A DNA stretch of 59,525 nucleotides. Origin: a virus. Taxonomy: Duplodnaviria; Caudoviricetes. The notes below the pieces were generated by a model. The model did not search any database, had not been told where the DNA came from, and was given only the letters and a program-made list of their open reading frames with translations. Position numbers and translations under genes: made by a program. The DNA is taken from the IMG/VR virus record IMGVR_UViG_3300022214_000006, positions 1 through 59,525 of that record, one strand, 5' to 3'. This document shows positions 8,569 through 54,039 of the stretch, one piece after another; the stretch's first letter is position 1; the number at the start of each line of letters is the position of its first letter.

Positions 8569-8644
8569 TGGAGCGGACTGTCGGCATCGAACCGACGACA
8601 TTCTGATTGGAAATCAGATGCTCTGCCAACTGAGCTAAATCCGC
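8569..8644 (-). tRNA. tRNA-Gly (UCC)
   Basis: 76-nt cloverleaf starting GCGGATT; anticodon arm TCTGA-TTTCCAA-TCAGA; T-loop TTCGATG; encoded CCA. Confidence 0.95.
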
Positions 8645-12427: not shown

Positions 12428-13243
12428 CTATTTTGTAAGTTGTTGATTCGCTTGACGCGCTTCTTCAATTCTTTGTTTTGCAATAGCAAAATACTTGTCG
12501 TCACGCTCTATGCCTATAAAGTTACGGTTAGTATTCATGCAGGCTACTCCGGTTGTACCGCTACCCATCGTGTTGTCTAACACCCACATGCCTTCGTTGG
12601 TGTAGGTCTTAATTAGGTACTCGCAGAGGGCTACGGGTTTTTGGGTGGGGTGGAATCTATTTTCACCTGATGGTATGTCAAATTCCAGAATTGTTGTAGG
12701 ATAGTTTGACCCTTTCACTTCATAATCCCCAGCATTAAGAGAGTTGTATTTGAATGTACCTGACGATTTTATTGCTGTCTTTCTAGTTTTTACATTATTC
12801 TTCCACACAACTCCCTGCGGGTTGTATTTTATAGGATTCAATGATCCTGTGTTACAGCCGCATTGACTAAATACAATAATATCTTCGTGAATCTTTAGGG
12901 GTTGATACTTTATAGCTACATGATTCGCGGCTTTATTCTTTTTCCAAACCCATGAATATTTATACCATTCAAGATTTGAAGAAATTAATGTGGTTGTAAA
13001 TGGTTGCGCCCCAAATAAAACAATAGTACCAAAAGGTTTTAATACTCGTTTGTATTCTAACCATAACATGTCTAAATCTATTATAGACTTTTTTGAAAAT
13101 TTAGACATATTTTTAAGAACTGTCTCAAATTCAGCATAAGTGGTCCCGTAAGGCAAGTCACACAGAATCATGTCAACACACTTGTCCGGCAGCGTAGCCA
13201 TGAGTTCTATGGTGTCACCTTGTTTAAGTTTTGCTATAGTCAT
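12428..13243 (-). CDS. DNA N6-adenine/N4-cytosine methyltransferase (beta class)
   Basis: 'DMILCDLPYG', 'HPTQKPVAL', 'VLDNTMGSGTTG'. Confidence 0.92.
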   Translation of the reverse strand: MTIAKLKQGDTIELMATLPDKCVDMILCDLPYGTTYAEFETVLKNMSKFSKKSIIDLDMLWLEYKRVLKPFGTIVLFGAQPFTTTLISSNLEWYKYSWVWKKNKAANHVAIKYQPLKIHEDIIVFSQCGCNTGSLNPIKYNPQGVVWKNNVKTRKTAIKSSGTFKYNSLNAGDYEVKGSNYPTTILEFDIPSGENRFHPTQKPVALCEYLIKTYTNEGMWVLDNTMGSGTTGVACMNTNRNFIGIERDDKYFAIAKQRIEEARQANQQLTK

Positions 13244-16258: not shown

Positions 16259-17824
16259 TTATTTCACCAGCCCCGCCTTAAACCATTCAGGCAAAATGTG
16301 GTTTACTTTTTGGAAGAAGGCGTGAAAGCGGGTGTCAAGTAGATACACAACGGATGAGTCATCCTTGCTTCTTGTACTTCTACCACACATCTGCATCACA
16401 TCAATTAAAGTCCGCCAATTATACCACACCCAATGCCCTTGTGAAAGTTTTGCATGTACATAAGGATCGGTGATTGCAGGATATGGTGGGCGTATAATAA
16501 TCTGCCATTTTGCCCTTGTTCCATGAGCGTCTATACCTTCACGAATTGATGGGCTAATAAATACTAATGGTTCTTTAGAATCATAAAACATTTGTAATTT
16601 TTTGGCAAATGTCTCAGGTGTATGTGTCACTATCCTACCAGTTTCTGAAAGTGATGCAGTTAATTCTTGCGCCATTTTATAAGAAGCTGCATGTATCAAT
16701 CCTTTCTGTAAATTATGGTGTTGCATAATCCTACGGATTTCATGTATAGCAACTGATGAATTAGTTGCCCACATCTTATGTGAAAGGTCTAGGTTAGAAT
16801 GACGTGGCATAACAACAGGGCGATTCTCTTTCGGAAAATCGCTATCAATATTAATAAACACTGCATCATTAGGAGAAATTCCAAGTCCTGAAAAGAAGGC
16901 ATTTTTATCCAATATCGTACCTGACATGAACACAATAACATCCCCAAAGGCTCCGAAAAATTGGTGGAACGCATTACCCACATAACTTGGAATCATAGTG
17001 ATAACTGTTTTATGTTTTCCTTGGATTACTTCGACAATTGCTAATTTTCCATAAGCGTCAATATTCTTTTCTAATTTCTCAAGTTTTTCCAAGTATGCTT
17101 CACGCGAGTCATTTGGAGTATGGAGGAACTGGTCATCTTGTTTGAGCCATTGTACCCATTGTAATGGTGTTTTTAAAGGTGATATGTCAGACAATGGAAC
17201 GTCTCGGTACACATTAAAAGTTACACTGAGTTGTGACCTCAAGTACGCTTCGATGCCGTGGCTTTCATCAATGATAATTATCCGCCGTTTTTCAAGACGG
17301 TCATACATCCCATTGAAAAAGAATGATGCTGTGTTGCAGCACACTATATCTTCTTTTAATGCTTCCGCTAGAGCAATATCATACGGGCAATCACCCGAAT
17401 TAACTTTGCAATCTTGGATACGCTTTTGCCGTGTCTCAGATTTAACTCCAACACATTCACCTGTAGCGCAGGAATCTTCAAGTTTCGGTTTCGGTACATT
17501 ATCACCAGCTCGAATCAACTTGATAATTTTTTGATTTGATGTTGGGTTTCCGTAAGTGCATTGGTATGCACCTTTACCCTTCAACACTTTCAGTTTATTC
17601 TTGAAATCTGCTCGGTATTGCTCTTGCAATGATTGTGTTGGGCAGGCGATGTATCCTTTACCATAATAATTACACAAAGAAACTGCCACCGCACTTTTAC
17701 CAAGCCCCACGGCGGCCTGTAGTCCGATGAACTTTGCTCCACCATCTATAGCAGCTTTAATTTTCTCAAGCGCGATTCGTTGATTTGGTCTGATTGTTTC
17801 TAGTGGAAAATGGTTTATTGGCAT
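16259..17824 (-). CDS. DinG/XPD-like SF2 helicase
   Basis: Q motif 'RPNQ', 'GLGKS', 'IIDESH', 'MSGT', 'EGID', 'Q.CGR..RS.DD', 'LLD.RF'. Confidence 0.88.
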   Translation of the reverse strand: MPINHFPLETIRPNQRIALEKIKAAIDGGAKFIGLQAAVGLGKSAVAVSLCNYYGKGYIACPTQSLQEQYRADFKNKLKVLKGKGAYQCTYGNPTSNQKIIKLIRAGDNVPKPKLEDSCATGECVGVKSETRQKRIQDCKVNSGDCPYDIALAEALKEDIVCCNTASFFFNGMYDRLEKRRIIIIDESHGIEAYLRSQLSVTFNVYRDVPLSDISPLKTPLQWVQWLKQDDQFLHTPNDSREAYLEKLEKLEKNIDAYGKLAIVEVIQGKHKTVITMIPSYVGNAFHQFFGAFGDVIVFMSGTILDKNAFFSGLGISPNDAVFINIDSDFPKENRPVVMPRHSNLDLSHKMWATNSSVAIHEIRRIMQHHNLQKGLIHAASYKMAQELTASLSETGRIVTHTPETFAKKLQMFYDSKEPLVFISPSIREGIDAHGTRAKWQIIIRPPYPAITDPYVHAKLSQGHWVWYNWRTLIDVMQMCGRSTRSKDDSSVVYLLDTRFHAFFQKVNHILPEWFKAGLVK

Positions 17825-19077
17825 TGTTTTAGTTGATCGTTTATAAAATCTATTACTTTGTTAGCATTGAAAATATTTGTGCATTCACGTTTAAAACTAA
17901 GAATTCCAGAATTTATACTTGGTATCTGTGCCTTCAATAATGACTCTATCCGTGCGGCTTCTGTCCCAGAACATTCAAATTTTGCTAAAACTTCATAATG
18001 TACGCGATGTTTTCTAAATTCTATTTCGTGTTGTGCGATTCTATTATCAAATACGTTACTAATACCATAACCACAATAAATATCACCTATATTTAGCACG
18101 TATATTATCGCAGGCAACGCTGTTTTAAAACCAGTCACGCTACAGGCAGGGCATCCGTGTTTAGCATGTAATATGTTTGTTGGTTCTGCTAACCATTCAT
18201 GACCACAATTTGTAGACAAACATTTAAATGTTATTTTTGTATCTACATTAACAAATTCACCAATTCGTTGTATCGAACTTCCTTCGAGTCTTACATCGAC
18301 TATTTCATTGGATAGTCTCTCAACTTTAGAACATCTAGCACAACCCTTACCTGCGAATAAATTTGATGCTAATATCGACCATTCTCTACCACACCCGTTG
18401 TTTTCGCATCTCACCTTAAACGGAATAGAATGCTTAATATAAGGAGATACCCTAATTATATTTCTTCCTATAAGTCGTGTATCTATAATCTCGTCAGTTA
18501 GTGGAGCACGTTTTGAGCATTTCGGGCATCCTTTACCTGATTGAATGGCTCCATATCTGGTGTACCATTCATATCCGCAAGTGGGGATACTACATTTAAA
18601 TTTTAATGGTTTATCAGACTGGGTATAGCTACCAACCCTGATAATATTTCGTCCTACTAAACGGGCATCTATTACAGTATTAGTTAGCGGTTCACTCCCC
18701 GAACATTTAGGGCATCCACTACCTCTACTAACTACGTTCAATACTTTAGTTTCCCAAACGTTAAGGCAACTATTAATCAAGCATTTAAATCGTAACTTAG
18801 ACTCACCACTAATTACTTCCCCAATACGCTCTATATTTCTACCCTTTAACCGAGAATCAACAATCTCATTAGTCAACCTCTCCTTCTTAGCACATCTAGG
18901 GCAACCATTTCCGCAACACGTAACATTGGGTGGGAACGTAGACCATTCACAATTACAACCATCTTTCAAGCATTTAAATTTTAACGAAGTTTTGCTGGAA
19001 ACATAATCCCCTATACGCTGTATATTGCGCCCAACCAATTTAAAATCTATGTCTGAATTTGTTAATCTCCTACTCAT
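17815..19077 (-). CDS. Free-standing endonuclease-like protein: 5 Zn-ribbon repeats + GIY-YIG-like C-terminal domain
   Basis: Five ~60-aa repeats ending 'GCP.C'; C-terminal 'IYV......YGISN...R..QH'; start at 19077 follows AGGAG. Confidence 0.7.
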   Translation of the reverse strand: MSRRLTNSDIDFKLVGRNIQRIGDYVSSKTSLKFKCLKDGCNCEWSTFPPNVTCCGNGCPRCAKKERLTNEIVDSRLKGRNIERIGEVISGESKLRFKCLINSCLNVWETKVLNVVSRGSGCPKCSGSEPLTNTVIDARLVGRNIIRVGSYTQSDKPLKFKCSIPTCGYEWYTRYGAIQSGKGCPKCSKRAPLTDEIIDTRLIGRNIIRVSPYIKHSIPFKVRCENNGCGREWSILASNLFAGKGCARCSKVERLSNEIVDVRLEGSSIQRIGEFVNVDTKITFKCLSTNCGHEWLAEPTNILHAKHGCPACSVTGFKTALPAIIYVLNIGDIYCGYGISNVFDNRIAQHEIEFRKHRVHYEVLAKFECSGTEAARIESLLKAQIPSINSGILSFKRECTNIFNANKVIDFINDQLKQCQ

Positions 19078-19088
19078 ACACACTCTCC

Positions 19089-19238
19089 TAAAACAAAGAG
19101 GCTTCACCTGAACTCTCAACCTTGCGGAAGTTGGAATAATGGGCTGACACCCACCAGAGTTCATGTAAAGCCTCGCCAGTTTAATTCGGATTCCAAGCCG
19201 ATAGGAGAGTTTATATACTAATTTATATTACTTGTCAA
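19089..19238 (-). promoter_or_regulatory. Promoter + structured leader of the endonuclease gene
   Basis: TTGACA-N17-TATAAA (19210-19238); long stem 19098-19116/19156-19174; TTGGAAT/ATTCCAA cross-pairing. Confidence 0.6.
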
Positions 19239-23025: not shown

Positions 23026-23054
23026 ATTATAGATGTTTTAGATGGGGTTGTCAA
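23026..23054 (-). promoter_or_regulatory. Consensus sigma70 promoter
   Basis: TTGACA-N17-TATAAT. Confidence 0.8.
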
Positions 23055-23913
23055 GGGTGTTGGAGATTAAATTTAAGACTGCCGGGAGGTTGTGTAAATG
23101 GGTGGCTTCTTTTTTGAAACCTTCAATTCCGGTATTAACTATTGGGAATGTCTTTTGGATTAAGCGTTCTATCTGTTGTGCTTGTATGCCGGAGCATTCG
23201 TAGGTGGTGATTAGTTCTGCGTAGGCGTTGTGCTTTTTGAAGGAAGTTTTGTGCCTATCGGCACGTGTTTTAAAATTATTAGTTATTCCAAAACCACAAT
23301 GGGTATCGTTGATTGCATACACATATACTACTGAAGGCTTTTTTGAATTAAATCCAGTTTTAGCACAGTTAGGACAGCCAACACCATCTAAAACGCTCCC
23401 CACTACCGCACTCCATTTATTACCACAACATAAACAGCTATATTTCATTTTATGGCTGTTACGACCTGTGTATTCTGACTCTCGCTTTATTCCTCGTCCA
23501 AGCAATTTAGCATCTATACTGCTATTTGTCAGAGGATTACTCCCAAAACATTTAGGGCATCCGGTACCATTATTAATTACATTGCTATATTTAGCTCTCC
23601 ATGTATGCCCACAGATGCCTGAAAACTCCATTCCACTATCCGCCCCAACATACTCGGATAATCTAGATATGCCCCTCTTAACTAATTCAGCATCCACTTC
23701 TTCTATTGGTCTAGGAATTCTTCCACCGCATTTAGGGCAACCTCTTCCTTTTGACACAACATTATTTGGTAGTGCTGACCAAACCCACCCACAGGACAAT
23801 TTTGTGCATTTGAAACGTATCTTAGTGTGGCACATAACATAGGTATCTAAGAGAATTATATTTCTCCCAGACAATCTAGATTGTATAATCTCGTCAGTTA
23901 GTTTCTTAGCCAT
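23038..23913 (-). CDS. Free-standing endonuclease-like protein: 3 Zn-ribbon repeats + GIY-YIG-like C-terminal domain
   Basis: Paralogue of 17815-19077; repeats ending 'GCP.C'; 'VYVY......GFGITN...R...H'. Confidence 0.7.
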   Translation of the reverse strand: MAKKLTDEIIQSRLSGRNIILLDTYVMCHTKIRFKCTKLSCGWVWSALPNNVVSKGRGCPKCGGRIPRPIEEVDAELVKRGISRLSEYVGADSGMEFSGICGHTWRAKYSNVINNGTGCPKCFGSNPLTNSSIDAKLLGRGIKRESEYTGRNSHKMKYSCLCCGNKWSAVVGSVLDGVGCPNCAKTGFNSKKPSVVYVYAINDTHCGFGITNNFKTRADRHKTSFKKHNAYAELITTYECSGIQAQQIERLIQKTFPIVNTGIEGFKKEATHLHNLPAVLNLISNTLDNPI

Positions 23914-24051
23914 AACAAAACCCTCAAAAATGTACACGAGCCGCCAAGCTGTAGTCCTGTAATAAAACAAGACCCGTGTACATATCTGAGGGTTTTACAG
24001 TTGCTACATCTTGGCTAGGGTTCTTATAGCAAAATAATAGTAACTTGTCAA
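23914..24051 (-). promoter_or_regulatory. Promoter + structured leader of the endonuclease gene
   Basis: TTGACA-N17-TATAAG (24023-24051); stem 23917-23940/23973-23996; cross-pairing 24004-24015 with 23943-23954. Confidence 0.6.
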
Positions 24052-39527: not shown

Positions 39528-40279
39528 TTAAAGTTCCAAGTAGCTGCCAAACCTTCTGGCTGGTTTAAAACGGGTTCGGTGAGTTTAATATGTTTTTGAT
39601 GGGTGTCAAGGGGTTTACGTTGCCTGTTCAATAAAAGTGTCATATAGAGTGCAAATGGGTCTAGGGCTAACGCAACCCCCAGAATCATCCAGCCAACAGC
39701 AGTTTCAATGCTTGCCCCAAACGAACCCGCGATACTCACAATCGGCCCAAGTTCCCCAAGACCATCAATGCTGCTAACTTGTGAGATTTCAAGTTTTTCG
39801 TTTACTGATTTCAAACTTTTAGCAATGTCTTTACGTTCTTCATCAAATGCTAAAATCAATTTCAACCTTCCATTGACAAACTCTTTCGGTAAATCTATAA
39901 CTTGTTGGTCTATAGAAGTGATACGAGCCTCTAGGCGGCTCTTCTCTGCTGTCAGGCTAGTCAGGTCTACCTCAATCTTTTGCACGGCTTTATGGTTCAT
40001 TTGGAAGGCGTTGGCGAGGTATCCATAGACACCTATACTTGTAAGCAAACTCACATATACAGCTACAATTACTACTGACAATTTAAACCTGTTGTTAAGG
40101 GTATACCACTGCTGCATGGCATAGGCTACCAACGAATATTTACCGAGTTCAATACCTACTCCAGCACAGACCATGGGCCAATATGCGCCTTTAAAGACTG
40201 CCCCGAGGCCAGTGATGGCACTGATTGCTGAAAATATGGCGATAATTAGGATACTTAATCGTAGTAAATTGACTATCAT
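39524..40279 (-). CDS. Membrane protein with coiled coil
   Basis: 3 N-terminal TMs, coiled coil, C-terminal TM ending 'LDP'. Confidence 0.7.
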   Translation of the reverse strand: MIVNLLRLSILIIAIFSAISAITGLGAVFKGAYWPMVCAGVGIELGKYSLVAYAMQQWYTLNNRFKLSVVIVAVYVSLLTSIGVYGYLANAFQMNHKAVQKIEVDLTSLTAEKSRLEARITSIDQQVIDLPKEFVNGRLKLILAFDEERKDIAKSLKSVNEKLEISQVSSIDGLGELGPIVSIAGSFGASIETAVGWMILGVALALDPFALYMTLLLNRQRKPLDTHQKHIKLTEPVLNQPEGLAATWNFK

Positions 40280-42299: not shown

Positions 42300-42377
42300 T
42301 GGTGGGTCACGCTGGAATCGAACCAATCCGTCTGACGGTTATGAGCCGCCTGCTTTCACCAAGTAAGCTAGTGACCC
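42300..42377 (-). tRNA. tRNA with CAU anticodon (Met or Ile2)
   Basis: Acceptor GGGTCAC/GTGACCC, arm GGCGG-CTCATAA-CCGTC, T-loop TTCGATT, encoded CCA. Confidence 0.9.
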
Positions 42378-42379
42378 GT

Positions 42380-42455
42380 TGGCAGGCTCTGATGGACTCG
42401 AACCATCGACACTCGGATTAGAAATCCGATGCTCTATCCTCTGAGCTAAGAGGCT
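42380..42455 (-). tRNA. tRNA-Arg (UCU)
   Basis: Arm TCGGA-TTTCTAA-TCCGA, T-loop TTCGAGT, encoded CCA; one C-C mismatch in the acceptor stem. Confidence 0.88.
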
Positions 42456-46355: not shown

Positions 46356-46586
46356 TTAATCCCCCTTTATCTGTAAAACAACGTCGTCAAGAACACTTAC
46401 TGCAAAAGAGGCAGCACTATTTACGCGCCCCCTGTAAGTGTTTGCTGCTGAGACTTCTTCGGACTTTTTAGATACTATAGCAGCACAGTGAGTAATCGCT
46501 GCGTTCCACGCCATTTCAGCAGAGATAGCGTTACGATCTTGTTCAAATACGTTCTTGTCAAGCCAATCTTTATAGTGCATTTTCAC
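46356..46586 (-). CDS. Hypothetical protein
   Basis: Coupled ORF. Confidence 0.55.
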   Translation of the reverse strand: MKMHYKDWLDKNVFEQDRNAISAEMAWNAAITHCAAIVSKKSEEVSAANTYRGRVNSAASFAVSVLDDVVLQIKGD

Positions 46587-47053
46587 TCTCCAAATTTAAT
46601 TGATTGTGCCGGTTTGTTGTATTTGTCGTAGCTGTCTTGCATCTCATCAAGTCTATGCTGTTGATGCCTTATTTCAGAATCCAAATTCCATATCTCACTT
46701 TGCGTTTGTGCGTTGCCGCGCAGCAATTGTGCATGGGCAATCTCTTGCCTTATTCTTGATTGCGCATTTAAGTTATCGCACTGGTTCATGATATATTCAC
46801 CTTTGGCTGCTTTAAGTATGTCGTTTACTTTTGGGATATTGAACTCTGGAATTGACTCTTTGCAGGCAGCTAAAAGTATCTCGACAGCTTCCAGCAGTGC
46901 ATCATGGCTATTCCAAGTGAGTGCTAGGCGCTTGGCGTTGTCGATATGGTTTACACCGTCAACCGCAGGTGTGTTTGCAACAACAACATCACCAATGCAT
47001 AACTGTACCGTTGCACCCATGTTGTAACCATTCAACTTTCCTTTAGTGTGCAT
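46583..47053 (-). CDS. Hypothetical protein (possible in-frame fusion of two genes)
   Basis: Start after GAGGAG at 47053; similar RBS/ATG context repeated at 46789. Confidence 0.55.
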   Translation of the reverse strand: MHTKGKLNGYNMGATVQLCIGDVVVANTPAVDGVNHIDNAKRLALTWNSHDALLEAVEILLAACKESIPEFNIPKVNDILKAAKGEYIMNQCDNLNAQSRIRQEIAHAQLLRGNAQTQSEIWNLDSEIRHQQHRLDEMQDSYDKYNKPAQSIKFGE

Positions 47054-47373: not shown

Positions 47374-47405
47374 GATCTATTCTCCTCTTGTGTTAGTTAA
47401 TCAAC

Positions 47406-47445
47406 TTAAGAACACTCATTATACATGAACTGGAGAAATTTGCAA
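47406..47445 (-). promoter_or_regulatory. Repeated phage promoter, copy 3
   Basis: TTGCAA-N16-TATAATGAGTGTTCTTAA. Confidence 0.75.
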
Positions 47446-47452
47446 GCACTTT

Positions 47453-47896
47453 TTATTGTCGGAAATGGATTTCTAACTGTTTTCGGTGGTGGAGGAACTT
47501 TTTATAGTATTGATCTGCGCTTATCTTGGCTTTACCTGCTTTAAAAGTGCCAATCCCCACATTATAACTACGAATTGCGTTCTCAGAACTATCAAGTCTT
47601 TTGTAATACTGTCGAAGTAACCCTGTACCGGCTATCATGTTTTTGTCTAGGTCTTTGCTACCCCCTCGAACCTGCATAATACCGACGCTCGGTATCCCTT
47701 TTTCTGGGTTGATAGCATTGGTACGGTATGCACTTTCTACCCTAATCACAGCCAGTATATCTAAGTAGGTCGGAAAATCTGGATAAGCTAACTGTTTTGC
47801 AAGTTTTACGATACGCTTAGGAGGTGTAATAAAATTATCGACTGCACCCGCTTCGCAACTAACCAGTAACATCAAAAAACATGCAAATTTAAACAT
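47453..47896 (-). CDS. Lytic transglycosylase (SLT domain) with N-terminal signal peptide
   Basis: 'AVI.VES.Y...A', 'GIMQV', 'A..SYN.G'; promoter TTGACA-N17-TATCAT at 47925-47953. Confidence 0.85.
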   Translation of the reverse strand: MFKFACFLMLLVSCEAGAVDNFITPPKRIVKLAKQLAYPDFPTYLDILAVIRVESAYRTNAINPEKGIPSVGIMQVRGGSKDLDKNMIAGTGLLRQYYKRLDSSENAIRSYNVGIGTFKAGKAKISADQYYKKFLHHRKQLEIHFRQ

Positions 47897-48062
47897 GTTA
47901 GCCCCTTTTAAAATGAGTTAACGAATGATAACCGAACTTGAAGATTTTGTCAAGCCTGTATTTGTTACAGTTAATGTAAAGCATTAACTTCCATCCGTGA
48001 TTTTTTAGGATGCTATATAAAATTGCAATGTATTAAAATCAACAGCTTACGAATTATTTGCC

Positions 48063-48114
48063 GATATAGGCGACATTAGAAAGAAAATATCTTGTCGCCT
48101 ATATCATGTTCGAC
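48063..48114 (+). other. attI-like left boundary of the cassette array
   Basis: GTTCGAC core (48108-48114) is complementary to R'' of the first attC but is not itself part of an attC; preceded by a 13-bp inverted repeat. Confidence 0.45.
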
Positions 48115-48118
48115 ACCT

Positions 48119-48319
48119 TCATGGTTGAGCAAACGGAGTTGGCGGTATCCAGTTACCATCGCACATCTTTCCAGATATTGCGGCTTCCCATGCTCGCTTA
48201 AAGCCAGCCTGAAACACCACGCGCCTATCTCTGTTGTCGATCTGTGGGCGTGCTGCAAAATACTCGTCCTCGGCAACTATGCAGTTGGCCTCCATTAGTG
48301 CATTGTCTCGTTCGTTCAT
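48119..48319 (-). CDS. Cassette 1: hypothetical protein
   Basis: RBS AAAGGA; 'ED.YFAARPQID...R.VF.AGF.RAWE'. Confidence 0.7.
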   Translation of the reverse strand: MNERDNALMEANCIVAEDEYFAARPQIDNRDRRVVFQAGFKRAWEAAISGKMCDGNWIPPTPFAQP

Positions 48320-48348
48320 TTCAATCCTTTCTTCGTAGAACGGGCGGT

Positions 48349-48413
48349 GTCGAACCCGTCAATCAACCCGGACTCCGCAAAAGCGCGGAGCCGGTTATTT
48401 CTGTTCGTTATGC
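48349..48413 (+). repeat. attC site 1
   Basis: GTCGAAC ccgtc AATCAACC ... GGTTATT tctgttc GTTATGC. Confidence 0.88.
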
Positions 48414-49153
48414 CCCTCAATCCGATTCCGCGCAATCTCAAAGTATTTTTGGTCTTGCTCTATCCCGATAAAGTTGCGCCCTGTATTTAGGCAAGCTACG
48501 CCCGTCGTGCCGCTCCCCATCGTGTTGTCCAGCACAGTCTCACCCTCGTTCGTGTAGGTCTTGATGAGGTACTCGCACAGGGCTACAGGCTTCTGGGTGG
48601 GGTGGAGCTTGGCATTTTCTTTGGCGAATTCCACGATCTGCTTAGGATAGTTTGTGAATTCTTGGAAGTGTTCCGCTGAGTGCGATTTTCGCGCAGGTGC
48701 GTTATCCCTACCTAGATTCTTCGGGCGAGTTGTGTCCACCGTCTTGCCGTAGGGTATCAAACCTTGCGGGAAATAAGGCATGTTATTTTTAGACCCATTC
48801 GCTGTCATGCCATCACTGAAAACACAAATGGTTTCGTAGCTCTTTAGCGGCTTGAGTTTCGCGTTCACGAATCCGCTAGTGTTCTTTTTATCCCACACCC
48901 AATCATACTTAAATCCCGCCAAGTTGGATAAACGCATCACACTAGAAAAAGGTTCTTCACCGAACAACACTATCGCCCCGTTCTTCTTTATCAACCGTTT
49001 ATATTGCTCCCACAGTGGCTCAAACGGAATTACCGTATCCCACTTGCACGCGGTCGTGCCGTATGGCAGGTCGCACAAGATCATATCTACCGATCCATCG
49101 GGTATCTGTGCCATCAAATCGAGGCAATCCCCCTGCCACAGCGTAAGGGGCAT
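48395..49153 (-). CDS. Cassette 2: DNA N6-adenine/N4-cytosine methyltransferase (start 49153, or further upstream within attC2)
   Basis: 'DMILCDLPYG', 'HPTQKPVAL', 'VLDNTMGSGTTG'; stop lies inside attC1. Confidence 0.9.
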   Translation of the reverse strand: MPLTLWQGDCLDLMAQIPDGSVDMILCDLPYGTTACKWDTVIPFEPLWEQYKRLIKKNGAIVLFGEEPFSSVMRLSNLAGFKYDWVWDKKNTSGFVNAKLKPLKSYETICVFSDGMTANGSKNNMPYFPQGLIPYGKTVDTTRPKNLGRDNAPARKSHSAEHFQEFTNYPKQIVEFAKENAKLHPTQKPVALCEYLIKTYTNEGETVLDNTMGSGTTGVACLNTGRNFIGIEQDQKYFEIARNRIEGHNEQK

Positions 49154-49230
49154 AACTTTACGGTCAAGCGGACTTGCCGCCTGCGTCGCTTCGCTCCTAG
49201 TCGTCAATCCGCTTACCTCCATCGTTAGGC
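49150..49230 (+). repeat. attC site 2
   Basis: GCATAAC tttac GGTCAAGC ... GCTTACC tccatc GTTAGGC. Confidence 0.88.
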
Positions 49231-49475
49231 CTACCATACATATAGTTTATGTGGCAGACTCCCTCATTAAATGTCATTGGTCGAGATGTGCTTTTTGTAC
49301 CTTCTCGCAATTTCATCCACCCACCCCATGATTCAACATAAAATTGCCAATACCCATCCATCCATTTATACGGGTTCCTTGGCAGGCTTGTTATTATTTT
49401 TTCTTTATCGCCTAACCCTGCGTTGAACCCAGACCCGCCGATACGTGCTTCGTTTTTAGTTTTTTGGTTTTTCAT
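49197..49475 (-). CDS. Cassette 3: hypothetical protein
   Basis: RBS GGAG and ATG inside the attC3 loop; stop inside attC2. Confidence 0.6.
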   Translation of the reverse strand: MKNQKTKNEARIGGSGFNAGLGDKEKIITSLPRNPYKWMDGYWQFYVESWGGWMKLREGTKSTSRPMTFNEGVCHINYMYGRPNDGGKRIDD

Positions 49476-49534
49476 AGTTCAAATCTCCGTTTCAAGTTTT
49501 CTAATCGGCGGGCTGGTTAACTGGTATGTTGGGC
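49410..49534 (+). repeat. attC site 3 (long, 125 bp)
   Basis: GCCTAAC cctgc GTTGAACC ... GGTTAAC tggtat GTTGGGC. Confidence 0.85.
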
Positions 49535-49535
49535 A

Positions 49536-49745
49536 TCATCCACCCATACCTCCATCACCCATGCACTCACCATTGCATTCGCGGTCAAAGCAAACAGAGC
49601 AGGGCTCGCTATCGACTTCTTCTTCGCTGCTATCGTTTACAACCTCTTGGCAGTTTATTCCTCCGCAGCTTCCACATTGGGTATGGGTAAGCGCGACCAT
49701 CGGGCCTCGCCAAGTTACATGTCCACCACATAAAGAGCAAATCAT
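49536..49745 (-). CDS. Cassette 4: small Zn-ribbon protein
   Basis: 'MIC..CGG.V.W.GP...LTHTQC..CG..NCQ'; RBS AAAGGA. Confidence 0.7.
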   Translation of the reverse strand: MICSLCGGHVTWRGPMVALTHTQCGSCGGINCQEVVNDSSEEEVDSEPCSVCFDRECNGECMGDGGMGG

Positions 49746-49774
49746 AGTACGTTCCTTTCTTCGTTAATCGTTAT

Positions 49775-49839
49775 GCCCAACCCTGCGCTCAAGCGGGATC
49801 GCACAAAATCGTGCGACCCCTTAGCTTGATATGTTCGGC
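49775..49839 (+). repeat. attC site 4
   Basis: GCCCAAC cctgc GCTCAAGC ... CCTTAGC ttgatat GTTCGGC. Confidence 0.88.
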
Positions 49840-50063
49840 GTCTTGAGCATAGCCGCATCAATCGCCTCTTCTGCGGTTGAGAATCGCTTGCCGTCCAAAT
49901 ACCAGCAGCAATTTCCACCTTGATGTGGCATTCCATGTTCAAGAACGTGGCGGTATCGTTCAGAGTCAAGTTCAAGTGCCGCAGCTCGATCCGCATACCC
50001 ATTGAGTGCGCTCCCGAAGTCTCCGCATTCGTGGTCTTGTTTTAATTGCTCGCTAAGTTTCAT
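49821..50063 (-). CDS. Cassette 5: hypothetical protein
   Basis: RBS AGGAG; 'DSERYR...AIDAAM' phage-type motif; stop inside attC4. Confidence 0.7.
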   Translation of the reverse strand: MKLSEQLKQDHECGDFGSALNGYADRAAALELDSERYRHVLEHGMPHQGGNCCWYLDGKRFSTAEEAIDAAMLKTPNISS

Positions 50064-50085
50064 AGTGCTCTCCTGTCAATTAGCC

Positions 50086-50145
50086 GCCGAACCCTTCATT
50101 CAACCCGGACGCGCTGATGCGCGCCGGTTAATTCAAATGTTCGAC
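50086..50145 (+). repeat. attC site 5
   Basis: GCCGAAC ccttc ATTCAACC ... GGTTAAT tcaaat GTTCGAC (classical 59-be-like). Confidence 0.92.
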
Positions 50146-50149
50146 CCCA

Positions 50150-50308
50150 TCAATTTCCAATTGCGCATATTGAAAAATATATCCCTGCAACAAATTCAGC
50201 TACGCCTGTTACGAATATTGCTAAATTACGTTTTCTTATTCCTTGCCCGAAAGAATCACCTGAAAGGATAAGTCCAGCAATACCGATTGAAAAGTTAAAT
50301 ATCATCAT
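50150..50308 (-). CDS. Cassette 6: small two-TM membrane protein
   Basis: RBS GGAG; two hydrophobic segments. Confidence 0.6.
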   Translation of the reverse strand: MMIFNFSIGIAGLILSGDSFGQGIRKRNLAIFVTGVAEFVAGIYFSICAIGN

Positions 50309-50332
50309 CTTGAATCTCCGATTAAAATAGTG

Positions 50333-50393
50333 GTCGAACCCTTCATTCAACACGGACGCGCTGAAGCGCGCCGGTTAATTCAAAATGTTGGGC
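50333..50393 (+). repeat. attC site 6
   Basis: GTCGAAC ccttc ATTCAACA ... GGTTAAT tcaaaat GTTGGGC. Confidence 0.92.
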
Positions 50394-50608
50394 GGCAGCA
50401 ATTGCCCGCATTCTTTACAACGCTTTGGCATCGGTGTGCTGTCGAGGAAAGCAACCCACCCGTGATTGAGGTTTTTCGTTAGGTTTGCGCGCTGCATCCA
50501 CACCCATCCGATGAATTCCATGCTTGATTCTTCCAGCGGCCCGTTATATTTTGTGTGCCTTGCCAATCGCACAGGCCACCAACAAAATTTAGTTTTAAAG
50601 TTGCTCAT
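50375..50608 (-). CDS. Cassette 7: hypothetical protein with C-terminal CxxC
   Basis: RBS AAGGAG; stop inside attC6. Confidence 0.7.
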   Translation of the reverse strand: MSNFKTKFCWWPVRLARHTKYNGPLEESSMEFIGWVWMQRANLTKNLNHGWVAFLDSTPMPKRCKECGQLLPPNILN

Positions 50609-50634
50609 GTGTGGTCTCCTTGTTCAAACGTTAT

Positions 50635-50726
50635 GCCCAACCCGGCGTTGCAGCGAAGCGCGGCCATAAGTCCGGCGGGTGTTATTCTGTTATTTTTTAG
50701 AGCGCTCGCTGAACTCGAGGTTATGC
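50635..50726 (+). repeat. attC site 7
   Basis: GCCCAAC ccggc GTTGCAGC ... GCTGAAC tcgag GTTATGC. Confidence 0.82.
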
Positions 50727-50757
50727 GTCAAGCAGATCATCAATAAATGCTCTCGCG

Positions 50758-51054
50758 TCAGCTCCGGTAAATCCCACGAAATACTCCATCCCGTACTGCA
50801 CCACCATGCACCACCGACGGTGCTCGTAACGTGATGCCGCTCTCCATGATTCCAAGCCAAAACCTCTGTATGTCGTGCTGTAGGCGCTCATATCTCTCTC
50901 CGTGATGCGTATTAAAGGCTTGCCGCGCCCACTTGCCTAAGCACGCATAGGTATTCCCAGTTTCTTTAATCTCTGCTTCAAAGAGTGGTTTAAGATTAAA
51001 TGGCAATGCAATTAATATATCTTTTGCTAGTTTTATTTGCTTTTCGGTAAGCAT
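50758..51054 (-). CDS. Cassette 8 (attC truncated): hypothetical protein
   Basis: RBS GGAGGG before MLTEKQ. Confidence 0.65.
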   Translation of the reverse strand: MLTEKQIKLAKDILIALPFNLKPLFEAEIKETGNTYACLGKWARQAFNTHHGERYERLQHDIQRFWLGIMESGITLRAPSVVHGGAVRDGVFRGIYRS

Positions 51055-51086
51055 GGTCCCTCCAAAATAAAGACGTATAACCCTAC

Positions 51087-51126
51087 TTAAGAACACCCAT
51101 TATACCAGAACTGTAAAAATCTGCAA
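51087..51126 (-). promoter_or_regulatory. Repeated phage promoter, copy 4, reading into the cassette array
   Basis: TTGCAG-N16-TATAATGGGTGTTCTTAA. Confidence 0.75.
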
Positions 51127-51134
51127 GCACTTTC

Positions 51135-53078
51135 TCAACCTTGTGCGATTATGTGCTGCTGCAACTGTTCAATATATTCTTCATCGGTATCTGGGAGGGC
51201 TTCAGAGCCTGTCAGACTGGCTTTGAAGGTCTCCAGTAGATATGATAGTTCATTGAGTCGTGCGGCTTCCGCAGGGTCTCCAATTTCAGGAATTTCGTCG
51301 AGAATACGGGTGATCTCATAGTCTGCACGTGTTTTGGCTGTGTATCTGCCGCTGTTATCTATCCACGGGCGGTCATCTGGCGACTCCTTATAATAGTCTA
51401 GCAGTCCTTGGTAGAACGGCAGGGTCAGCAGGTCTAATGAACCTTGGGCGGCGGCTAACTTCTCTTCGGCGCGGCGGGATTTTTCGGAGGCTATTGCCGA
51501 GATTATAAAATTGCTGATATTTTTTATATCTGTCGTAACATTCTCGAATCTGCTTACAGACCATTTCAACACTTTGTCTTCAGGTTGTTTATACACGGCT
51601 GCAAAGAACGCTTTGATAGTCATCTGCTTATTTTGGTAAATAATTTGATCTGTCGAATAAACGTTCAGCATTTCCATCATGTCAGATACTGTTACGTAGC
51701 TGTTGACATACTCACCGTCTTTAATGTCTTCGCAGGCTTCAAGGAATAGCTGCACGTTTTCGGCACGTCTTGACTCATCTTTAAGTGTATCCTTATCTAT
51801 GTTCTTGCAGTAGTACTCCCACAAGTCGAATCTTTTGTATATTGTCGGCAACACGCGCTCGACTTCACTGTTTAGGTAGTCTTCGGTGAACTGGTCATAG
51901 TCTTCTTCCTTTATATCTGATGGTATCAGTCCTTGCATTGTCACATAATCAATCTTTTTCTGCGCAGATGTTGCGTGTTCGCTTGTTCGACACGAATTAA
52001 TCAGCAGTTCATAATAGTCTTGGTCTACACCGTCTTCCCCAGTCAAGGCTTTATATGTAGCTCGTGCTGCGGCTGTCTCCATATTAAACATTTGTGTTAA
52101 CGTCTTACCATCGTAGTCCCTTGGCTGCGGGCGAGGCGGGAAATACTTGGCGGCAGTATCCTTGAACTTTTGTTTCTTTTCTGCAATGGTTAATGATTTC
52201 GTAGGTTGTGTTGTGGTGGGGGCTAATTGTTGGATGGTTACGCCGGTGTATAATTGCTGCATTGTTGGGAGTTTCGACACCTTCTTAGCTAATACCGCAA
52301 GTGATGCATCACTACCGTCACCCATTAGAAAGTCAATCAGGTGATCTTTATCTGCACAGTTGCACAGTGTCAGGAATTGCTTGAAGTTCTTTTTCTTATA
52401 TATCCTGCGGAGGTCTAGTTTATCATAATCTATGGTTTCATAGGTTAGGGCAGGTTCTTGTGGTGCCGCAACTTTTTCAGGTTCTAATATCTCACAACAT
52501 TGCTGCCGATACAACGCTAAACTACGCTCGACACCCGCCTGCCCATCAGGATGCTTTATGGTTAAACCTTTCGTAAAACGATTCATGACTTCATCTGAAT
52601 GTGAATACTTAGTGTGTGTATGTTTAGCCATATCTGCACTTATCAACTGTTTCAATACAGGTATTAGATGTTTTGCATTATAGTAAGGCTTCGCCGCGAA
52701 TAAACTATCTTTTTGAAACATCATCGGGTGGTGCGCAGGGATTATACCTTGCCTTGCAATTTCAGTATCTATAATACTTACAGGAAAACCAGAGAACTCA
52801 TGAACCATTTGCACTGAGAATAAAATATCTTTAATGATGGTAAGTTTTATAATGTTGTAGGCGTTAATATCTGCAATCCTAGTTGGTGGAGTTCCGCGAT
52901 ACATTAAGTAGCTACGAAAGCCGTCTTTATCCCACGCAAACATAGCTGATTCTGTATAATAACTCCTCAACTTCAAAAAGTTAATATCATCTGAAAATTC
53001 AGAATTTAGTACGTTTTTTTCTTCTAATTTATAGCGCATTGATGCACTAATGTTGTTAAGTTTACAGAAATATTTCAT
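51135..53078 (-). CDS. Large hypothetical protein (~647 aa)
   Basis: Long ORF; likely start MKYF at 53078 after GGAG; no family recognised. Confidence 0.75.
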   Translation of the reverse strand: MKYFCKLNNISASMRYKLEEKNVLNSEFSDDINFLKLRSYYTESAMFAWDKDGFRSYLMYRGTPPTRIADINAYNIIKLTIIKDILFSVQMVHEFSGFPVSIIDTEIARQGIIPAHHPMMFQKDSLFAAKPYYNAKHLIPVLKQLISADMAKHTHTKYSHSDEVMNRFTKGLTIKHPDGQAGVERSLALYRQQCCEILEPEKVAAPQEPALTYETIDYDKLDLRRIYKKKNFKQFLTLCNCADKDHLIDFLMGDGSDASLAVLAKKVSKLPTMQQLYTGVTIQQLAPTTTQPTKSLTIAEKKQKFKDTAAKYFPPRPQPRDYDGKTLTQMFNMETAAARATYKALTGEDGVDQDYYELLINSCRTSEHATSAQKKIDYVTMQGLIPSDIKEEDYDQFTEDYLNSEVERVLPTIYKRFDLWEYYCKNIDKDTLKDESRRAENVQLFLEACEDIKDGEYVNSYVTVSDMMEMLNVYSTDQIIYQNKQMTIKAFFAAVYKQPEDKVLKWSVSRFENVTTDIKNISNFIISAIASEKSRRAEEKLAAAQGSLDLLTLPFYQGLLDYYKESPDDRPWIDNSGRYTAKTRADYEITRILDEIPEIGDPAEAARLNELSYLLETFKASLTGSEALPDTDEEYIEQLQQHIIAQG

Positions 53079-53102
53079 AACTTTTTTACTCCAAAATTGA
53101 AA

Positions 53103-53151
53103 AATCGTGTCCAAGGTACAAGGAATCGTGTCCAAGGTACAAGGAATCGTG
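53103..53151. repeat. 21-bp tandem repeat (2.3 copies)
   Basis: AATCGTGTCCAAGGTACAAGG x2 + AATCGTG. Confidence 0.9.
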
Positions 53152-53682
53152 GCCGTTGTCAAGACATTTTTAGCGGTTAGTAAAGGAATTATGTCCGTCG
53201 AGATGGTAGTAATTCCTAATGTTTCGGACAAAAGTGTCGGTTGAGAGGCGATGAATTTCCATTAGACGGACATAATTTTGAGTGTTTTCATTATACTTTT
53301 GGACTTTTTCGTGTTTTCGGCACTATCCGAAAATGCTGGAAAATCGAAAAAATTTTAGAGGAATGATGCTGGTATTGGGATTGCAGGTTAGTGGTCGCAT
53401 ACTACGATGAAAATAAGTATAGAGCAAGTTTTTAAAATAATTTTCTCAGATTTGCAGAAAAATATTTTCTGGAACGAGGTTGTACTTATTTATGCATATT
53501 ATGTATAATATATATAATAAGTACATAGGTAACACATTGATTTCATTGCAGTTTTATCGTAAGATGCTGCTGAAAATACATAATATGTGGCTACCTGAAT
53601 CGCTGCAAGGTATGTAAATAAAGGCTTGCAGAGGTGCTTGCAGCCACAAAACTGTGTTATGATGTGTTTTTAGGAGGCACAC

Positions 53683-54039
53683 ATGCGTACTGTTTACAAG
53701 CTGAAAATGACACACAAATTTGCTAAAAAGCACTTCACCTATTTTCCGAAAGGTGGGGTTTTGAAACTACGTGCAGATATTTTAGAGACTCGTTTTATAC
53801 AGAAAACTGCTGAGTGGTGGCAGGAGATGCCAGAGCCTGAAAAAGTTACAACGGTTGTAGCGATCAAAGGCTCACCAGTGGCATTTAAAGCTGATGGGAA
53901 GCTATGGGTGCAGCATAATGGTCTACGATGCCTTGCAACCGACTTCATAGGCTTCCTAAAGTATGGTTGCTGGTTCCGGTACGATCCGAAAGATGGTGAT
54001 TATTGCAATTTACGATGGAGTAATCTTAGGAGGTCTTAG
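53683..54039 (+). CDS. Degenerate HNH-like protein
   Basis: RBS AGGAGG; C-terminal 'KDGDYCNLRWSNLR' resembles HNH_3 'DG...N....NL' but the catalytic His is not visible. Confidence 0.5.
   Translation: MRTVYKLKMTHKFAKKHFTYFPKGGVLKLRADILETRFIQKTAEWWQEMPEPEKVTTVVAIKGSPVAFKADGKLWVQHNGLRCLATDFIGFLKYGCWFRYDPKDGDYCNLRWSNLRRS

Follow-up and report, generated by a model that had tools for sequence, protein, structure and literature searches.

Integrons are usually viewed as bacterial devices, and recent work has found that their cassettes often encode anti-phage defence. Here we describe an integron-type array of gene cassettes that lies inside a virus, on the IMG/VR record IMGVR_UViG_3300022214_000006. 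The analysis covered this entire linear record of 59,525 bases, estimated to be 72% complete, which we call the window. The array extends from an attI-type head module that begins at position 47969 to a truncated attC site that ends at 51094, and we consider it likely that the locus is an integron platform that lacks an integrase and exchanges its cassettes through a host integron integrase (IntI) supplied in trans.

Phage-borne cassette arrays are already known as a category. According to the available part of their report, Qi et al. (2023; PMC9892861) described 17 clusters of attC sites without intI (CALINs) and a few complete integrons in phages, including virulent phages; five cassettes encoded methyltransferases (N6_N4_Mtase among them), one CALIN lay beside a terminator-like hairpin, and IntI1 recombined attC sites of other virulent phages. 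The array in the window resembles these CALINs in being an attC cluster without intI, in its methyltransferase cargo and in having a boundary beside a hairpin. Unlike the CALINs as described in that part, it is headed by an attI-type module that retains the vestigial start of intI, and two unrelated phages have this head in common; all of the open reading frames (ORFs) are inverted, and there are 7-9 sites per array.

Cassettes can also insert at non-classical genomic attG sites and form SALINs or small CALINs, as stated in the accessible portion of Loot et al. (bioRxiv 10.1101/2022.09.11.507474). Compared with the insertions presented there, the locus is alike in having cassettes outside a complete integron, a G/TT-like insertion point and expression that would depend on neighbouring promoters. 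It differs in that its head is a conserved intI-attI-like module rather than an arbitrary GWT site, and its distal unit has only the R''-L'' half rather than the complete attC of an IntI insertion.

With the betaproteobacterial chromosomal integrons in our collection (G608:C96, L133, L134 and L135), the window shares the attC family, as judged by cross-detection with the covariance models R1 and R2 described below, and chaining at G/TT; with G608:C96 specifically it shares the same type of attI module. In contrast to these integrons, it has no integrase, its ORFs are inverted, its module bears a perfect 13-bp repeat, and it resides in a virus. What is new is that the array has an attI-type head with a remnant of intI, that this head recurs with other cargo in a phage unrelated to the first, and that the cargo is uniformly inverted. 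No paper on an attI-headed integrase-less platform common to phages, or on uniform ORF inversion, was found in a search of mostly open-access literature, largely at the level of titles.

attC Sites and Their Chaining

A first-pass annotation, made from the letters of the sequence, had placed seven attC sites in the window and described their layout and their chaining; all three parts of that description were borne out. The sites lie on the + strand at 48349-48413 (s1), 49150-49230 (s2), 49410-49534 (s3, 125 nt), 49775-49839 (s4), 50086-50145 (s5), 50333-50393 (s6, 90% identical to s5) and 50635-50726 (s7). Each of the seven opens with R'' (NNNNAAC) and a 5-nt spacer; an 8-nt L'', the stem and L' follow, and a spacer of 4-7 nt leads to R' (GTTNNNN). 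Some of the variable positions depart from the strict R/Y of RYYYAAC and GTTRRRY, as in GTCGAAC. All seven sites have an extra base at position 4 of L'' relative to L' (C in five, G in two), and the polarity of this base agrees with that in arrays beside intI. Folded as single-stranded DNA, the sites reach -11 to -18 kcal/mol, with the bottom strand more stable in six of seven (some of the coordinates being slightly loose). At every one of the seven junctions, R'' is the exact reverse complement of the preceding R', beginning with GTTCGAC at 48108; among the 5040 possible orders of the observed boxes, 4 yield seven matches.

Because Rfam has no attC family, we built our own covariance models. 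R1 was made from the seven window sites and two sites of another viral contig. It returned the seven sites at 49-72 bits, as expected by construction (64.4 bits for s1 and 49.3 bits for s7), and its next best match in the window scored 13.5 bits. A degenerate site word matched at least 120 stretches in a genome collection, many with record titles naming Betaproteobacteria (Gallionella, Sideroxydans, Nitrosomonadales, Rhodocyclaceae and Thiobacillus) or Holophagaceae, and in 80 of 120 such loci R1 gave 159 matches at E<=0.001, typically as same-strand arrays. Three of five bacterial genomes tested encoded an IntI over the curated TIGR02249 cut-off, and beside these three intI genes R1 found 19, 3 and 33 sites. 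Because the strand of every one of these sites points away from its intI, the + strand of the window corresponds to the canonical attC top strand. In L133, the clearest case, the longest ORF was co-oriented with attC in 18/18 cassettes, and 13/18 junctions chained perfectly.

The training set of the second model, R2, consisted of 51 attC sites that lie beside bona fide intI genes in two complete integrons of bacteria (L133 and L135). Run on the whole window, a check of the kind that the first-pass annotation had proposed, R2 accepted 7/7 sites at 28.3-62.3 bits (62.3 bits for s1 and 28.3 bits for s7), on the + strand only and with nothing else at E<=1; the test is not fully independent, because its training sites had been chosen by R1. 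No match to the tyrosine recombinase family PF00589 or to the integron integrase family TIGR02249 was obtained at E<=1 in the 59.5-kb window, which agrees with the earlier description of an integron-type array in a phage without an integrase. With seven sites packed within 2.4 kb and no such match in the record, the locus is an attC cluster without intI. On the basis of their sequence, we take the seven sites to be integron attC sites.

A regular-expression finder for attC was also tried and was dropped, as it missed most known sites. The possibility that the minus strand is the true top strand, which would turn the cassettes into canonical gene-then-attC units, was rejected on account of the extra base in L'' and the polarity of the bacterial sites relative to intI; it was also ruled out by the co-inheritance of a methyltransferase gene with its 5' attC, presented below.

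The attI-type Head Module and the intI Vestige

The array is headed by an intI-proximal, attI-type module of ~142 nt (47969..48110, + strand) that ends at the crossover, G 48108 / TT 48109-48110. It is 84% and 80% identical to two copies on a second viral contig, G008, and in a three-way alignment of the phage copies the similarity stops exactly at ...TATATCATGTT (CATGTT), after which all three differ. On the minus strand, the module contains the vestigial start of an intI gene (47971..47994), consisting of an ATG (47994-47992) and 6 codons followed by a stop. This stub aligns with the start and first codons of the intact intI of the bacterial locus G608:C96 (MEAQAV...) and with the stubs of bacterial orphan copies. 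No functional intI adjoins the array; the 7-codon stub at 47994-47971 stands in its place.

The module contains a perfect inverted repeat of 13 bp, GATATAGGCGACA / TGTCGCCTATATC (48063..48105), whose arms enclose a loop of 17 nt and which lies 2 nt before G/TT. The repeat folds at -13.5 kcal/mol as DNA, and the surrounding stretch is AT-rich. Its arms are invariant and its loop is variable in the three phage copies, and the bacterial homologues have no more than a partial repeat. No T-run follows the phage repeat. That the repeat is perfect in phages may point to an additional role, as a hairpin that closes the leftward operon. A Pc-type sigma-70-like promoter, as sought for a complete integron, had no match on the + strand of the module.

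Bacterial and phage loci share three collinear blocks in the module. The first reads ...CTTCCATCCG...TTTTAGG.TGCCCTAAA, and its CAT is the intI start codon in G608:C96; the second and third follow in order as ...CGATATAGGCGACATT... and then ...TTCTAT.TT..GTT + RRRY, with the similarity stopping at the GTT. We also took the regions upstream of eight bona fide intI genes, regardless of their similarity to the module. The module was present in one of the eight, that of G608:C96, where it lies between an intact 326-aa intI (476.7 bits) and the first cassette. A profile of the three phage copies alone detected this intI-attI region (L272) at E=2.1e-5 in 1.08 Mb and the other bacterial copies at E = 4.3e-9 to 7.6e-4; because the other loci had been chosen for their match to the module, only the G608:C96 match is an independent test. 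At the latter locus, the junction GTTATGT chains with the attC R'' ACATAAC, and the cassette gene is co-oriented. The other bacterial copies are orphans, with intI elsewhere in the genome or reduced to a stub. At least two of these orphans head attC arrays, and the genes are co-oriented in the G623 copy, where ORFs were checked. The homology of the module to an intI-adjoining region, taken together with the intI stub, makes the module a candidate attI and would make the locus a platform of truncated intI, attI and cassettes rather than a bare attC cluster.

Among 317 genomes of the family of a Gallionella metagenome-assembled genome (MAG), 7 partial matches were found, and 401 genomes of an order-level sample gave one weak 33-nt match. 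An earlier blastn search of the module against the bacterial attC loci then collected gave nothing convincing. A metagenome scan with a 20-mer of the module returned only G008's own contig (listed twice) and one chance match inside a coding sequence; two viral scans with module words returned only G008, and the other 18 16-mer matches were without further similarity. The module is lacking in three further viral loci (G006, G007 and L203).

The orphan copies are L266 (G623:C24), L265 (G709:C6), L260 (G538:C30), L023 and L263 (G626:C1), two of them in G623. Their carriers are genomes of the Gallionella family and a Nitrosomonadales MAG, and some copies head small attC arrays with co-oriented genes. 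A different attI type, with TATACACC repeats, is found in the complete integrons of G623, G419, G709 and a Thiobacillus MAG (G411), the four of these genomes for which the sequence upstream of intI was read. In the attI region of L133 (1640-1735), TATACACC occurs twice as a direct repeat and once more, inverted, 6 nt ahead of G/TTAGGT; this layout, with an inverted repeat just before the crossover, resembles that of the phage module, and the two sequences are unrelated.

A Second Viral Contig with the Module

G008, which was reached by a 16-mer of the module, is a viral contig of 40,021 bases from another sample and is 99% complete. It encodes a terminase, a portal protein, a major head protein and a DnaC-like loader, and its backbone is unrelated to the window save for a tail-fibre-like domain, a 44-aa stretch of a small ORF and a 232-nt piece. 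The module occurs twice in G008, and one copy heads nine attC sites that chain perfectly (9/9). The cores of these sites match those of the window closely (58/58 positions for s1, 97% identity for s2, 84% for s4 and 81-83% for s5/s6), and the variable R''/R' bases differ from those of the window.

The coding content of the two arrays was then compared. A 124-nt attC in G008 is the counterpart of s3 and, like it, has a gene start embedded in it: the attC-embedded start M-x-NQK-x-K... (MQNQKPK... in G008) is homologous in the two phages and leads into unrelated bodies. Unrelated proteins of the window and G008 also end in the same C-terminal tails, NEQK* and NISS*, because these residues are encoded by the neighbouring attC. 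None of nine window proteins (c1-c7, g8 and the backbone methyltransferase) had a significant blastp match among the ORFs of the G008 array, all values being E >= 0.2. The ORFs of that array are all inverted and have Shine-Dalgarno (SD) motifs, and one encodes a Dam-like methyltransferase (phrog_111). No tyrosine recombinase (PF00589, E<=1) was found in G008 or in G006 (100% complete, with terminal repeats), a viral contig with two attC sites and with one inverted and one co-oriented gene. The first-pass annotation had expected cassette exchange at G/TT, and the comparison with G008 supports this view: the module is the same, the attC cores are near-identical, the cargo is different and the chaining is 9/9. 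These sequence comparisons indicate that an unrelated phage carries what appears to be the same platform with other cassettes.

The two module copies of G008 (L165/L166/L160) lie at 3397-3541 and 39777-39916, inverted relative to each other and near the ends of the contig. Only 105 nt separate the second copy from the contig end, and they include the end of an ORF directed at the module; it may therefore be that G008 has two arrays with convergent heads and that its assembly broke within them. The common 232-nt piece (window 46570-46801, G008 10523-10753) is 89% identical and encodes the C-terminal portion of an uncharacterized 197-aa protein. Its presence in otherwise unrelated phages hints at a common host or gene pool.

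One further viral locus bears on the cassette unit. Of 80 viral loci whose methyltransferases are 53-66% identical to that of the window cassette, L203 was the only one with attC sites. Its methyltransferase is 59% identical, the attC sites lie 5' of the inverted gene, with the same R'' as in the window (GCATAAC), and the neighbour on the 3' side of the gene is not an attC. L203 supports a canonical cassette unit (TTRRRY...gene...attC) with the gene reversed, in which gene and attC would travel together.

Orientation of the Cassette Genes

All cassette genes in the window lie on the minus strand and are inverted relative to the + strand attC sites. To score orientation, the longest ORF was taken, with a 1.3-fold margin and a length of at least 40 aa. 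Among 110 bacterial cassettes (21 loci), 78 were co-oriented, 10 were inverted and 22 were ambiguous, and the 13 cassettes of the two phage arrays were divided into 0 co-oriented, 9 inverted and 4 ambiguous (Fisher p=6.5e-8 for phage versus bacterial orientation, unambiguous cassettes only).

In one bacterial array, L013 (G004:C15) of a Propionivibrio MAG, the longest ORFs are inverted in 6/9 cassettes and co-oriented in none; this may be a high-GC artefact or a real inverted array.

Integrases in Candidate Host Genomes

MAGs labelled Gallionella, Sideroxydans, Thiobacillus and Rhodocyclaceae contain cores of the s1 type that are 94-98% identical. An IntI over the cut-off is encoded in 4/5 genomes with s1-like cores; among genomes with module-like matches, 7/7 encode an IntI, 6 of them over the cut-off. 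One public run was examined (contigs only, 5% word share). It held attC cores on contigs with varied flanks, where the similarity began at the AAC of R'' or ended at the GTT of R', and it also held part of c5.

Cassettes and Cargo

Cassette bounds were set at the G/TT crossovers, and all cassettes are given on the + strand and their genes on the minus strand. Cassette 1 (48109..48407) contains c1 (48119-48319, 66 aa), with the SD motif AAAGGA and an ATG, and s1, which chains as GTTCGAC/GTCGAAC. Cassette 2 (48408..49224) contains an N6/N4 DNA methyltransferase gene (48395-49153, 252 aa) and s2. The ATG of this gene lies inside the R'' of s2 (GTTATGC on the minus strand), and it crosses G/TT because its stop TAA lies in the L' of s1. 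Cassette 3 (49225..49528) contains s3 and c3 (49197-49475, 92 aa); the s3 loop accommodates the SD motif GGAG and the ATG of this gene, whose last 9 codons fall within s2. Cassette 4 (49529..49833) contains c4 (49536-49745, 69 aa, Cys-rich) and s4, and cassette 5 (49834..50139) contains c5 (49821-50063, 80 aa), which stops at a TAA in the L' of s4 (C terminus NISS*), and s5. Cassette 6 (50140..50387) has the hydrophobic c6 (50150-50308, 52 aa), with GGAG and an ATG, and s6; cassette 7 (50388..50720) has c7 (50375-50608, 77 aa), with the SD motif AAGGAG and a stop TAA in the L' of s6, and s7. The methyltransferase, c5 and c7 genes thus all stop at a TAA within the L' of the neighbouring attC and thereby cross the recombination point. 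An SD motif lies 3-9 nt before the ATG on the minus strand in 7/8 window genes (c1, c3-c7 and g8), and the methyltransferase gene is without a clear one.

The methyltransferase is the sole cassette gene with a Pfam or PHROG match (PF01555, 2.7e-30; phrog_67, 6.4e-75), and c1, c3-c7 and g8 have no match in either collection. The first-pass annotation had named the cargo as a DNA methyltransferase with Zn-ribbon and Ead/Nin-type small proteins. The methyltransferase stands, a Zn-ribbon in c4 is read from the Cys pattern alone, and the Ead/Nin-type label is unsupported. When the cassette proteins were compared with the bacterial arrays collected (tblastn), only distant methyltransferases were matched. 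Against cultured phages (blastn), only the methyltransferase part of the region matched, in 96 records, with a query cover of <=11% among the 30 matches listed. A cargo of one DNA methyltransferase and small unknown proteins fits early, host-interaction or anti-restriction accessory genes.

For c5, 37 metagenomic homologues were found, all unnamed or hypothetical; the family consists of short proteins with a core of ~31 residues at 74-90% identity. A protein identical to c5 is on record from a 96-kb contig, which is probably a fuller copy of the window phage. The backbone of the window also encodes an N6/N4 DNA methyltransferase (12428-13243, minus strand, 271 aa), with a GC content of 37.7% versus 49.4% for the cassette gene. 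The two genes share 175 nt at 78% identity over the near-identical motif HPTQKPVALCEYLIKTYTNEG...GSGTTGVAC, a likeness that could reflect strong family conservation or partial exchange. No attC was found near the backbone copy.

The Eighth Unit and the Right End

Beyond s7 lies an eighth unit (50721..51094, + strand), which comprises g8 (50758-51054, minus strand, 98 aa) and a truncated attC. The latter consists of an R''-like GTATAAC (51075-51081), a consensus-like spacer CCTAC and an L''-like TTAAGAAC (51087-51094), and it is without its 3' half. GTATAAC can pair with the R' of s7, GTTATGC, through one G.T wobble, and the same pairing occurs in the bacterial array L133. The truncated site does not fold (-1.2 kcal/mol) and was not matched by R1 or R2. 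The first-pass annotation, whose end coordinate of 51081 is the end of GTATAAC, had called the array intact; this holds for seven of the eight units and fails for the last. Its account lacked three features, namely the inverted cassette ORFs, the attI-type head with the intI vestige and the truncated last attC.

A reading in which g8 is backbone and the array ends at s7 was not adopted, as GTATAAC-CCTAC-TTAAGAAC occupies the place expected for an eighth attC. Counted for that reading was a resemblance between the 15 nt after the R' of s7 and those after the second G008 module.

The Phage Genome around the Array

The window is a phage record, with genes for a tape measure protein, a tail-fibre-like protein, a family-A DNA polymerase, a primase/helicase, two helicases and two HNH endonucleases. 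The HNH-endonuclease-like ORFs (17815-19164 and 23038-23970, minus strand) lie among the replication genes and adjoin helicase genes. Three tRNA genes, the sole Rfam matches in the window, are given at 8572-8644 and 42303-42455 (minus strand). At 46.5% identity, the DNA polymerase resembles its counterpart in Achromobacter phage JWF (a siphovirus of 81.5 kb), and the window is the record of an uncultured siphovirus distantly like JWF; a 42.7-kb stretch of JWF had nothing in common with the window beyond the polymerase and one small ORF. No close relatives were found among viral contigs with a 698-aa neighbour protein and the DNA polymerase as queries. R1 had no match in any of five cultured polymerase relatives (0/5), a result of little weight given how distant they are.

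The array has a GC content of 48.4% compared with 41% for the backbone, which was counted for a foreign origin of the array. It sits in a leftward gene block, after the first genes of the block and before the hairpin and promoter of the next unit. This promoter, TTGACA-17-TATCAT (47925..47953, minus strand), is sigma-70-like, matches 11/12 consensus positions and is the best within 47400-53800; it lies directly outside the head module and serves the next leftward unit, which contains an SLT-domain gene (47453-47896).

Discussion

We favour the interpretation that the locus is an integrase-less integron platform in a phage, and it seems probable that it exchanges cassettes by means of a host IntI acting in trans, as the first-pass annotation had supposed. 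Such a role for the host enzyme fits the IntI genes of bacteria with near-identical attC cores or the module, and the absence of a tyrosine recombinase match from G008 and G006. The integrase of the platform would have been lost, leaving the vestigial start of intI, an attI-type site, seven cassettes that are complete and an eighth whose attC is truncated. Its cassette genes would be read by phage transcription running towards the attI end, and its attC sites would serve as gene punctuation, in that three ORFs end at the TAA of an L', one starts in an R'' and one starts in an attC loop. We infer that an infected host, probably a betaproteobacterium of the Gallionella or Nitrosomonadales kind, would express an IntI that acts on the phage DNA, so that attC sites, folded from their bottom strands, recombine with one another or with the attI of the phage. 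Cassettes could thereby be gained, lost or replaced at G/TT. Only those whose ORF runs along phage transcription would be expressed and kept, and we propose that the inversion is uniform because of this retention. Ongoing exchange, expression and function of the array are likewise inferred. The occurrence of the same platform with other cassettes in an unrelated phage suggests that phages may borrow a host integrase to swap early genes.

Several observations weigh against this interpretation. No recombination event was observed, and no excised or rearranged forms or joints were present in the one public run, which comprised contigs only at a 5% word share. No close relative turned up, among viral contigs or cultured phages, in which gain or loss of cassettes on one backbone could have been seen. 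Compared pairwise, the phage module and the intI-adjoining region of G608 are only weakly similar (90% over a block of 21 nt and 83% over one of 18 nt), and the homology of the module rests on the profile E value of 2.1e-5, the collinear blocks and the position. Most bacterial copies of the module are orphans, and the complete integrons of the same genomes use another attI type. Both covariance models are our own rather than those of IntegronFinder, and R1 picked the training sites of R2. The orientation control, which relies on the longest ORF, is crude, and bacterial L013 scored 0 co-oriented and 6 inverted. The 28% of the phage genome that is absent from the record could hold a recombinase. 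The truncated attC at the right end points to at least one non-IntI event, a capture or a deletion, and fits a passive fragment.

This last point leads to the alternative that survives best, which we nevertheless regard as unlikely: the locus may be a frozen relic, a piece of a host integron with truncated intI, attI and cassettes that was captured once by illegitimate recombination and underwent no further IntI exchange. The truncated distal attC and the proximal intI, cut after about 7 codons, both look like breakpoints that are not site-specific; the orphan arrays with truncated intI and attI in bacterial genomes are possible donors; and the public run yielded no rearranged form within the scope just given. 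However, two unrelated phages have the same module with wholly different cargo and perfect chaining in each, and the similarity of their modules stops at G/TT. A random bacterial chunk would be mostly co-oriented (78/88 unambiguous cassettes), whereas both phage arrays are inverted and fitted to phage transcription. In addition, all seven attC sites of the window keep their structure and the extra base.

It is considerably less probable that the phage encodes its own recombinase, IntI or other, in the 28% of the genome outside the record. The incompleteness of the record (72%), the protein identical to c5 on record from a 96-kb contig, and the complete integrons in phages reported in the part of Qi et al. 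(2023; PMC9892861) cited above are in its favour. Against it, the intI beside the attI module is reduced to a stub, and G008 (99% complete) and G006 (100%, with terminal repeats) bear attC arrays without a PF00589 match at E<=1. It is very improbable that the array is a chimera of the assembly, or that its repeats have nothing to do with integrons and are, for example, terminator hairpins of the phage: the GC content of the array is above that of the backbone and attC sites are hairpins, but the array is internal to one contig with phage genes on both flanks, the same platform is present in a second phage contig from another sample, the bacteria-trained R2 finds 7/7 sites, the junctions chain in 7/7 cases, and a terminator-like match occurs in only 1/7 attC sites (s1), another starting in the R' of s6 and running into cassette 7.

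Beyond the integrase-less platform that we favour, a broader proposal can be put forward tentatively, with somewhat less than even confidence, in which the intI stub, a functional attI and the array form a dedicated platform, kept by phages of integron-bearing Betaproteobacteria within their early genes, that exploits host IntI during infection and draws on a phage-specific pool of inverted cassettes for counter-defence shuffling. The inverted repeat of attI may then double as an operon-end hairpin, and inverted cassettes would be silent in bacterial integrons and expressed in phages. Such anti-restriction or counter-defence shuffling would mirror the way in which bacterial integrons stock anti-phage defence cassettes.

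The locus offers a candidate attI, seven attC sites and a candidate cognate IntI from a bacterial genome. Uniform ORF inversion provides a simple, testable signature of phage-selected cassettes and raises the question of where such cassettes are made. If the proposed platform is real, phages would use host-supplied integron recombination machinery to diversify their own early genes.

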